Shown: positions 18,571-18,610 of the stretch, piece by piece
Numbering within the stretch: the stretch's first letter is position 1
How the letters are laid out: each line of letters opens with the position of its first letter
IMG/VR virus record: IMGVR_UViG_3300045988_181536
Span: 64,001-128,000 of that record
Length of the DNA stretch: 64,000 bases
Strand: one strand, 5' to 3'
Source of the DNA: a virus
Notes under the pieces: generated by a model
What the model saw: the letters and a program-made list of their open reading frames with translations, nothing else
What the model was told of the DNA's origin: nothing
Database searches by the model: none
Translations under genes and position numbers: made by a program

Positions 18571-18610
18571 AAGTTGATATGTCAACTACGCACCAAATGA
18601 ACTGGTGAGT
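18571..18610. repeat. orphan copy of the tnpB-element right-end motif (solo RE / MITE-like remnant)
   Basis: atgtcaactacGcaccaAatgaactGgtgag matches 6780-6815 (atgtcaactacTcaccaGatgaactAgtgag) with 3 mismatches over ~34 nt. Confidence 0.6.

Follow-up and report, generated by a model that had tools for sequence, protein, structure and literature searches.

A probable 47-nt terminal-only PATE among the IS200/IS605-family elements of an uncultivated human-gut phage

Introduction

IS608 and ISDra2 are the archetypes of peel-and-paste transposition in the IS200/IS605 family of insertion sequences (ISs). Repetitive extragenic palindromic (REP) elements, which are mobilized by REP-associated tyrosine transposases (RAYTs, or TnpA-REP), are evolutionarily tied to the ends of this family. 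The promoter/stem-loop cassettes of phages (PeSLs) are regulatory motifs without transposon ancestry. In the T4-type phages, PeSLs are reported at hyperplastic regions (PMC2839356, PMC4122927). In Geobacillus stearothermophilus, the ISGst family includes partners of TnpB elements that resemble palindrome-associated transposable elements (PATEs) and that often encode an omega-RNA (Meers et al. 2023, PMC10055086). In Haloquadratum walsbyi, the IS1341-type ISHwa23 (1500 bp) was reduced to a 52-bp terminal-only PATE by a repeat-mediated deletion of its core (Dyall-Smith et al. 2011, PMC3119063). Here, we analyze a stretch of 64,000 nt (“the window,” which is positions 64,001 to 128,000 of the IMG/VR virus record IMGVR_UViG_3300045988_181536; coordinates are those of the window). 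The window contains one tnpB-carrying IS, and a second copy of that element's right end lies in a spacer without tnpB. We argue that this second site (18581-18627, minus strand) is probably a gene-less, terminal-only PATE of 47 nt, or in other words, a miniature derivative of the IS200/IS605 family.

The terminal-only type of PATE is already known from archaea; here it is placed in an uncultivated human-gut phage, which would explain the orphan repeat without new biology.

Results

An orphan copy of the transposon right end

The original prediction was that a motif at the 3' end of tnpB recurs at a second, orphan site. Reading the two sites directly, we found that the repeat is present (6775-6808 vs. 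18579-18612; 30/34 identical, or 28/31 across ATGTCAACTAC...GTGAG), although the exact registers are about 4 nt away from the ones first given. We will call the two copies site A and site B. In the whole window, a degenerate 31-mer that accepts both copies matches only at these two sites, and none of 100 dinucleotide-preserving shuffles gave a chance match. The motif was thought to overlap the end of tnpB, but it begins 3 nt past the stop codon. Similarly, “atgtcaactac” had been taken for flanking sequence, but GTCAACTA is the last 8 nt of the transposon's right end, and only the leading AT is true flanking DNA. That the AT is shared is due to chance, since the dinucleotide after other insertions is TC, GT, TT, GC, TA, CA, or CT. 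We also considered a conserved plus-strand mini-ORF (ATG TCA ACT ACN CAC CAR ATG AAC ...), which was suggested by synonymous-looking mismatches. We rejected it because its ATG is half flank and half element, and the other copies have different flanking dinucleotides.

As had been stated, there is no tnpB near site B, which lies in a 185-nt spacer between two plus-strand genes (encoding 143 and 119 aa) that have no matches in Pfam. An alternative genetic code, with TGA read through into the 119-aa gene, is not needed: ordinary open reading frames and the relatives explain the locus.

Site B combines a left end with a right end

To describe site B, we need the boundaries of the full IS. Relatives (L-numbers) are sibling contigs; all are from human-gut metagenomes, and they are phage contigs of ~100-175 kb. 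The features of the full IS are:

6777-8152, minus strand: full IS with tnpB only, 1376 bp (boundaries from the copies in other flanks and from L025)
6777-6811, minus strand: right end (RE) of the IS, with hairpin at 6785-6805 and tip at 6777-6784
6812-8023, minus strand: tnpB, 403 aa (stop codon at 6812-6814)
8024-8152, minus strand: left end (LE) of the IS, with hairpin at 8115-8135
8153-8157, minus strand: target motif TTTAT of the full IS (from comparison with the element-free L025)

The features of site B are:

18581-18627, minus strand: putative terminal-only PATE, ATTGTTTAATTCAGAAAA-CTCACCAG-TTCAT-TTGGTGCG-TAGTTGAC (from alignment with the miniature copies in L014/L030, L015/L022, and L027)
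18581-18588, minus strand: right-end tip TAGTTGAC, the cleavage-side terminus and the common end of the full elements
18589-18609, minus strand: single subterminal palindrome, degraded, with one T-C mismatch and one G-T pair (from the fold and pair counts)
18610-18627, minus strand: left-end-derived segment ATTGTTTAATTCAGAAAA, 18 nt, with CAGAAAAC adjoining the hairpin
18628-18632, minus strand: TTTAT target motif (transposon-adjacent motif, or TAM) abutting the left end; (T)TTAT is found before every LE seen
18568-18600, plus strand: stump MKLICQLRTK*, 10 codons, of a small phage gene that was truncated by the element

The window's single TnpB gene is the 403-aa open reading frame, which matches HTH_OrfB_IS605 (PF12323), OrfB_IS605 (PF01385), and Cas12f1-like_TNB (PF07282) in Pfam. 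Relatives of this TnpB are encoded on 13 viral contigs. L001, L002, and L023 carry the window's IS at 97% identity in different flanks, and L003 carries a 71% relative. In the orientation of tnpB, homology begins straight after TTTTAT| and ends at ...CTCAC(T/C)AGTTCATCTGGTGAG-TAGTTGAC|. The full elements all end with ...TAGTTGAC, and the flanks diverge right after. The left boundary is confirmed by the element-free L025, which has CGTAATTTTAT|GATAATC at the position of CGTAATTTTAT|TAATTTCC in the window. The IS is placed 3' of TTTAT, and a target duplication is absent. Both ends have subterminal imperfect palindromes (CTTACCAG-CTTGT-CTGGTAAG in the LE and CTCACTAG-TTCAT-CTGGTGAG in the RE), and there are no terminal inverted repeats. 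Given these boundaries, site A is the last 32 nt of the RE, with a hairpin whose stem is 8 bp and the 8-nt tip TAGTTGAC.

Site B with its flanks reads, on the minus strand, TTTTTAT-ATTGTTTAATTCAGAAAA-CTCACCAG-TTCAT-TTGGTGCG-TAGTTGAC|ATATCAAC. Its TTCAT loop and its TAGTTGAC tip at the 3' end are identical to those of the RE. On the 5' side of the hairpin, the window's RE differs from site B (...AAATCAAG). Instead, site B has CAGAAAAC in the exact register of an LE, as in the window's LE (8136-8152) and the LEs of L003 and L029. With the stem arm added, CAGAAAACTCACCAG agrees with the LE of L003 at 15/15 positions and with the window's LE at 14/15. The outermost part of site B, GTTTAA(GC/TT)C, is common to the other miniature copies and to a 164-nt PATE in L045. 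Because the sequence 5' of the hairpin is of the LE type and is preceded by TTTAT, while the loop and the 3' flank are of the RE type, we interpret site B as a fusion of an LE and an RE with one hairpin.

Both termini of a PATE are kept at site B (TTTAT-ATTGTTTAATTCAGAAAA ... TAGTTGAC). The 47-nt unit is too short for any protein, and it matches the resident IS family in its hairpin and at both of its tips. The copy at 18581-18627 is identical at 7 other loci, from 5 distinct contigs. The earlier idea that site B derives from the ends of a TnpB-carrying IS is borne out, and of the options that had been offered, a “MITE-like remnant of another insertion” (a miniature inverted-repeat transposable element) comes closest.

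Miniature copies and longer PATEs in sibling phages

We searched the collection for the architecture of site B and found miniature copies (“minis”) at three further loci: L014/L030, L015/L022, and L027/L044/L046. All of the minis have a near-identical core of 44 nt, GTTTAAGCCAGAAAACTCACCAGTTYATCTGGTGAGTAGTTGAC. A covariance model built from the minis (R1) had four significant matches in the window: site B (69 bits, 18581-18624), the RE (40 bits, E ~2e-7), the LE (22 bits), and this feature:

50221-50259, minus strand: third, diverged relative of the minis (GTTAAAACC-GCTCACCAGTTTATATGGTGAGC-GGTTAAT; R1 31.9 bits, E ~2e-5)

The hairpin at 50221-50259 has a perfect 12-bp stem, which folds at -17 kcal/mol as DNA and -21 kcal/mol as RNA, and the stem is followed by TTTT on the plus strand. 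Its neighbors on the two sides, 48631-50196 (+) and 50272-52584 (-), are convergent genes. It resembles a hairpin from an element that has been retained or exapted as a bidirectional terminator, and some of the mini copies may have been kept as terminators in the same way.

The LE-tip variant GTTTAA(GC/TT)C is present in all of the minis and in no full-length IS, but it is present in the 164-nt PATE of L045. Because of this distribution, the minis seem to descend from the PATE lineage of L045 and not from the window's own IS. The L045 PATE is composed of a mini-type LE tip (AAGTTTAAGCC), an LE hairpin, ATGAATGG, the last ~90 nt of a second type of tnpB, and an RE. It is cleanly inserted after CATTAT, and the window is uninterrupted there (CATTAT|CTCACAC at 3842|3843).

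There are also remnants that contain only an RE along with tnpB-3' sequence, in L020, L023 (4601-4700), and L025/L026. The ~105-nt remnants in L020 (~842-946) and L023 (4601-4700, minus strand) have different flanks and the same start, CAAATAACTTTAGGG, within the 3' end of the second type of tnpB. One of the two has a fully compensated hairpin (CTAATCAG/CTGATTAG). These two remnants may be stand-alone omega-RNA modules.

The flanks of the mini in L015/L022 are exactly those of the full IS in L001/L002, and the junctions are identical (full IS at 2862-4247 of L002 vs. 46-nt mini at 799-844 of L015). At the equivalent of the L015 locus, the window (48075-48088) lacks the element and also lacks the adjacent gene of ~530 nt.

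Across 13 distinct variants of the hairpin, 94% of cells are paired, and there are compensatory changes at 3/8 pairs. None of 500 shuffles matched the observed pairing or covariation score. Because pairing and covariation both exceed all 500 shuffles, the palindrome is a selected feature of the element's ends.

Autonomous copies and the signature of transposition

A second type of TnpB (365 aa), which looks unrelated to the window's TnpB, is encoded in elements whose RE tip is the same and whose LE is similar (L018, L027, and L029); those in L018/L029 match TnpB in Pfam. The element in L029 is complete and autonomous: it has an RE, tnpB (7215-8312, minus strand), a divergent tnpA (8334-8735, 133 aa), and an LE. 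TnpA was first picked up as a lead and was then confirmed with Pfam. The open reading frame in L021 matches Y1_Tnp (E 6e-32) and has PDHVHIL and YIEQQ motifs, and the TnpA of L029 is near-identical to it.

The element of L029 forms a clean empty/filled pair with L037: L037 reads AGTTTAT|TAAAAGTTAG, and L029 reads TTTTAT|IS|TAAAAGTTAG, where the IS has both tnpA and tnpB. We read this pair as the IS200/IS605 signature, that is, insertion 3' of a fixed pentanucleotide without duplication. The window itself has an empty site, ATCTAT|TCTTAAAC at 8990|8991, for the full IS in L023 (in the opposite orientation). The (T)TTAT that precedes the LEs is exact in the comparisons of L037 with L029, of the window with L045, and of L025 with the window. 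A single lineage of gut phages holds autonomous elements with tnpA and tnpB, elements with tnpB only, the 164-nt PATE, RE-only remnants, and the 47-nt minis.

In L021 (1489-1904, minus strand), an intact tnpA is followed by the reverse complement of the LE's inner flank (CCATTCAT), the hairpin, and TAGTTGAC. This arrangement suggests that the core of the L021 element was inverted by recombination between its two palindromes.

We scanned 185,579 bacterial and archaeal genomes with the RE pattern and then with the LE pattern. There were 0 exact matches, so these scans point to no host or chromosomal source.

Alleles of the site-B locus

We compared alleles among the contigs that carry the same 119-aa gene. 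In the first allele (L023, L031, L032, and L039), there is no element and a small gene is intact (~77 aa, MKLIYKIPYMQ...). In the second allele (the window and seven loci from five contigs), there is an identical mini and the first 13 nt of the small gene; the intact gene and the stump share the start ATGAAGTTGAT. In the third allele (L033), there is neither the element nor the small gene.

The RE junction is exact: homology with the element-free L023, L031, and L032 stops at 18580|18581. On the element's strand, the first allele reads GGAATTTTAT|ATATCAACTTCAT, with TTTAT before ATATCAACTTCAT. Because TTTAT| stands at the exact RE junction, the element seems to have entered 3' of TTTAT in codons 5-6 of the small gene. 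The LE flank of site B comes from another allele of the sequence that precedes the 119-aa gene, and it also ends with TTTTTAT. Therefore, a second event would have removed the body of the gene.

The copy itself is damaged. There are two substitutions in the 3' arm of its palindrome, and as DNA it folds at -4.3 kcal/mol (z -1.2), vs. -9.5 for the intact minis of L014 and L015. The scaffold of an omega-RNA (~100 nt or more) is not kept at site B, which has only the last hairpin, with LE instead of tnpB-3' sequence on its 5' side. A search of Rfam with gathering thresholds found neither an omega-RNA nor any other family at site A or site B. Because the palindrome is weakened, there is no TnpA in the window, and there is no room for TnpB or for the omega-RNA scaffold, this copy is probably an inert relic.

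A search of the B locus for a full-length IS led to an element that is nearby but not at site B, in a 174-kb Logan contig (L039). This is a different IS605-type element (~669-2157), with a 413-aa TnpB, a C-terminal remnant of tnpA, and different ends, and it lies inside the 143-aa gene next to the B locus. The region of the B locus is a hot spot for the IS605-type family.

The sequences at 17081-17113 and 18614-18646, which are upstream of the genes at 17132 and 18645, share AACAATATAAAAA..., which is possibly a promoter or translation-initiation motif. The minis in L014/L030 and site B directly adjoin motifs of the AACAATATAAAAA type.

Alternative explanations for site B

The original prediction included a solo RE and a recombination scar. 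On this view, a lost tnpB element would have left behind its RE hairpin and tip, without any component from the left end. The strongest similarity of site B is to the RE (26/29 over the tip and hairpin, with the identical loop), and genuine RE-only remnants do exist in sibling phages. But in all of the known remnants, the hairpin has tnpB-3' sequence (..TTACAAG or ..ATCAAG) on its 5' side, and the window's own RE has AATCAAG there. At site B, the 5' side of the hairpin is of the left-end type: it has the LE-specific CAGAAAAC in register, the GTTTAA.. tip, and the preceding TTTAT. Also, the 9-nt match CAGAAAACT is absent from the element-free L023, L031, L032, and L033. A solo RE is therefore very unlikely. 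Alternatively, site B could be a phage transcription terminator, either native or exapted, with a likeness to IS ends that is incidental or was retained because it is useful. On the plus strand, site B has a 5-bp stem followed by AGTTTTCT, and a consensus scan flags it as terminator-like. As RNA, the intact minis and the LE have folds of -18 kcal/mol, and UUUUCU comes after them; the related hairpin at 50221-50259, with its 12-bp stem between convergent genes, passes as a terminator, as the intact minis do. However, no more than 5 pairs are contiguous in the stem of site B, and folding as RNA gives -8.9 kcal/mol (z -0.8), which is not an improvement on shuffled sequence. The flanks outside the stem, TAGTTGAC and CAGAAAAC..GTTTAA, match transposon ends, which is not expected of a generic terminator, and relatives manage without the element at this locus. 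We consider it quite unlikely that site B is primarily a terminator; termination as a side effect is credible for the family but weak for the site-B copy. As for the proposal that site B is a target of, or a source of guides for, the nuclease formed by the resident TnpB and its omega-RNA, the sole point in its favor is the general fact that omega-RNA guides derive from RE-flanking DNA (PMC10055086). Site B contains no match to the predicted guide of the window's IS, ATCCGATAGCTATTACTTTG, and a target is expected to have the form of TTTAT plus the guide sequence, not a copy of the RE. As a source of guides, site B keeps the final hairpin without the tnpB-3' scaffold, and Rfam recognizes no RNA family there. 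We give this proposal almost no credence.

The remaining alternative is that the 44-47-nt unit is an active non-autonomous transposon, moved in trans by a TnpA that is supplied by a co-infecting phage or by the host. The LE-tip variant that is found in every mini and no full-length element fits with this, as does the presence of minis at four loci, each beside (T)TTAT. One site is occupied by a mini in some phages and by a full IS, whose LE tip differs, in others, and the 52-bp PATE of Haloquadratum shows strain-specific insertions (PMC3119063). On the other hand, each locus may have begun with a PATE of the L045 type (164 nt) that later collapsed where it was; the palindrome of site B is damaged; and at the L027 locus there is decay of the RE tip, which goes from TTGAC through TTGAT to TTAAT. 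Also, a TnpA dimer has two sites to fill, and one hairpin is not enough for both. Overall, we lean away from current activity, while viewing it as a tentative possibility. We still prefer to view site B as a terminal-only PATE, but several observations weigh against this. A clean empty site was found neither for site B nor for the other minis; in every case, one junction is exact and the flank on the other side is rearranged. (We sought empty sites by comparing L014 to the window, L015 to the window, and L044 to L049, and each was rearranged on one side.) The insertion may therefore have been of the 47-nt unit or of a longer precursor. In IS608, the canonical substrate of the TnpA dimer contains two hairpins, and a mini offers one. 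TnpA was not found within the window, and just past the window's right end, where we also sought it, the closest relative (L037, which is 99.8% identical to the window over 48718-64000) has no element. The LE boundary of site B is ambiguous by ~3 nt (18624-18627), and the element-free L033 reads ATTGTTAAAT at the equivalent place, which matches ATTGTTTAAT at 9/10 positions, in AT-rich DNA. Finally, at the L015 locus, the LE tips of the mini and of the full IS differ at 6/25 positions. The L015 mini is therefore not a simple in-situ deletion of the IS of L001/L002; either this site was used twice, or one element replaced the other.

Proposed origin of the minis

The empty/filled pairs show that transposition in this family follows the IS200/IS605 route, with insertion 3' of TTTAT or (A/C)TAT and without target duplication; the driver would be the Y1 (HUH) transposase TnpA from autonomous copies in sibling phages. 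The 164-nt PATE of L045, inserted where the window is empty, shows that gene-less derivatives move as well. Recombination or replication slippage between the near-identical palindromes of the LE and the RE may then have deleted the core and left a hybrid hairpin: the part 5' of its stem would come from the LE, and the loop and the 3' tip would come from the RE. We favor a deletion between palindromes that acted as direct repeats because the hybrid is LE up to the stem and RE from the loop on. At site B, the RE junction indicates that the element, or a longer precursor, landed 3' of TTTAT in codons 5-6, and the body of the gene would have been lost later, on the LE side. The copy would now be inert; on the coding strand, it presents a weak hairpin followed by UUUUCU, which might at most add some transcription termination between the two genes. 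More generally, the minis either move as 47-nt units or arise repeatedly by the collapse of longer PATEs.

Synteny breaks coincide with all four mini loci and with several copies of the full IS, and the new flanks often end with TTAT. In this repeated placement at synteny breakpoints, the minis recall the PeSLs of T4-type phages. Because each mini has a palindrome flanked by the transposase's cleavage motifs, the 44-47-nt units could be the smallest mobile or recombinogenic form of IS200/IS605 in a virus and could serve as portable breakpoints for the gain, loss, and exchange of gene cassettes among co-infecting gut phages, although we consider this rather unlikely. If the minis are mobile or are hot spots for exchange, then they would offer a concrete mechanism for modular variation between closely related phages, as well as a minimal substrate for the study of TnpA.

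Several rearrangements were seen near these elements. In L030, window position 17087 is joined to 19575 through a mini, and four genes are missing. In L001 (4248 onward), ~124 bp abutting the RE is deleted; L002 and L015 (845-968) share the undeleted flank. The region upstream of the mini in L044 is replaced in L049. It had also been suggested that the repeat pair could mediate rearrangement of the DNA between sites A and B. Since the two sites are in direct orientation, recombination would delete the intervening 11.8 kb; this is plausible but unproven, and we saw no relative with an 11.8-kb deletion.

The predicted guide and the gene interrupted by the full IS

The predicted omega-RNA guide of the window's IS lies at 6757-6776 on the minus strand (ATCCGATAGCTATTACTTTG; ATCCGATAGC...; ATCCGATAGCTATTAC...). 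With this, the analysis fixes the ends of the phage's TnpB element (6777 and 8152), its target motif (TTTAT), and the position of its guide.

The IS interrupts a deaminase-like gene (...GLHSEIACIKQ...) that is intact in L025 (7440-7700; the window's parts are 6660-6776 and 8153-8400). From the window's copy of this gene, 138 bp is gone; the exact limits of the gap are TTTAT toward the LE and GTTAT toward the RE. The predicted guide ATCCGATAGCTATTAC has one mismatch to the intact gene in the IS-free L025 (~7490-7510), beside GTTAT. If GTTAT is tolerated as a TAM, then TnpB could target siblings that lack the IS during co-infection.

Genomic context

The window is the replication and nucleotide-metabolism module of a phage, with a family A DNA polymerase, a DnaB-type helicase, a dUTPase, several tRNAs, and a ribonucleotide reductase (~55218-58661) whose large subunit contains an intein. 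Among GenBank phages, the window has no close relative: a megablast search with window positions 5000-20000 matched nothing. The DNA polymerase is at most 26% identical to those of GenBank phages, and the tnpB only weakly matches Prevotella Lak phages.

We noticed a few other features of the window. Rfam identifies a group I intron at 1733-2105 (68.7 bits) beside a tRNA gene, and there are three further tRNA genes (12222-12470; 47336-47407). An exact direct repeat of 34 nt, TTAAAAATAGAAAGGAAAATTATGCCAAATTGGG, is found at 14984-15017 and 16265-16298, at the starts of two neighboring genes. There are also paralogous repeats at 20016-20094 and 22603-22681, and at 24153-24265 and 34819-34931.

Comparison with known systems

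The family shares with IS608 and ISDra2 a Y1 HUH TnpA, subterminal hairpins at both ends, and insertion 3' of a fixed target of 4-5 nt without duplication. As in those elements, the 3' end of tnpB and the RE would specify the guide RNA. However, the target is TTTAT instead of TTAC (IS608) or TTGAT (ISDra2), the RE extends only 35 nt after the tnpB stop, and the window's copy has no tnpA (that is, it is of the IS1341 type).

Like REPs, the minis have a single short imperfect palindrome with a conserved flanking oligonucleotide. Unlike REPs, they have a far lower copy number, we saw no RAYT gene, and their flanks are the tips of the resident IS's LE and RE instead of a GTAG-type head. The minis also resemble PeSLs, in that both are short stem-loops at gene starts in the hypervariable regions of large phages, where they bound segments that differ between close relatives. 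The minis differ from PeSLs in having transposon ancestry, and a role for the minis in shuffling is suggested only by their position.

As with the PATEs of the ISGst family, the minis are gene-less, they share an LE and an RE with tnpB-carrying copies, their TAM is conserved, and they are predicted to be mobilized in trans by a single TnpA. But a 47-nt unit cannot encode an omega-RNA. The 164-nt PATE of L045 and the ~105-nt remnants in L020 and L023 are closer to the description of ISGst.

The terminal-only PATEs of H. walsbyi (the 52-bp derivative of ISHwa23, and HqIRS46) are similar in several ways. In both systems, the source is an IS1341/IS605-type element of ~1.4-1.5 kb, and the core was lost between near-terminal palindromes that acted as direct repeats, which in our case is a proposal. 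The products have fused termini of ~50 nt with one palindrome, and they lack inverted terminal repeats and target duplications. The host is different, as our elements are in a human-gut bacteriophage of ~165-175 kb instead of a haloarchaeal chromosome. The phage minis also have a low copy number (~1-3 per genome) and a unit of 44-47 nt, and the palindrome of the window's copy is damaged. In both systems, the mobility of the tiny form is suspected and is still a proposal.

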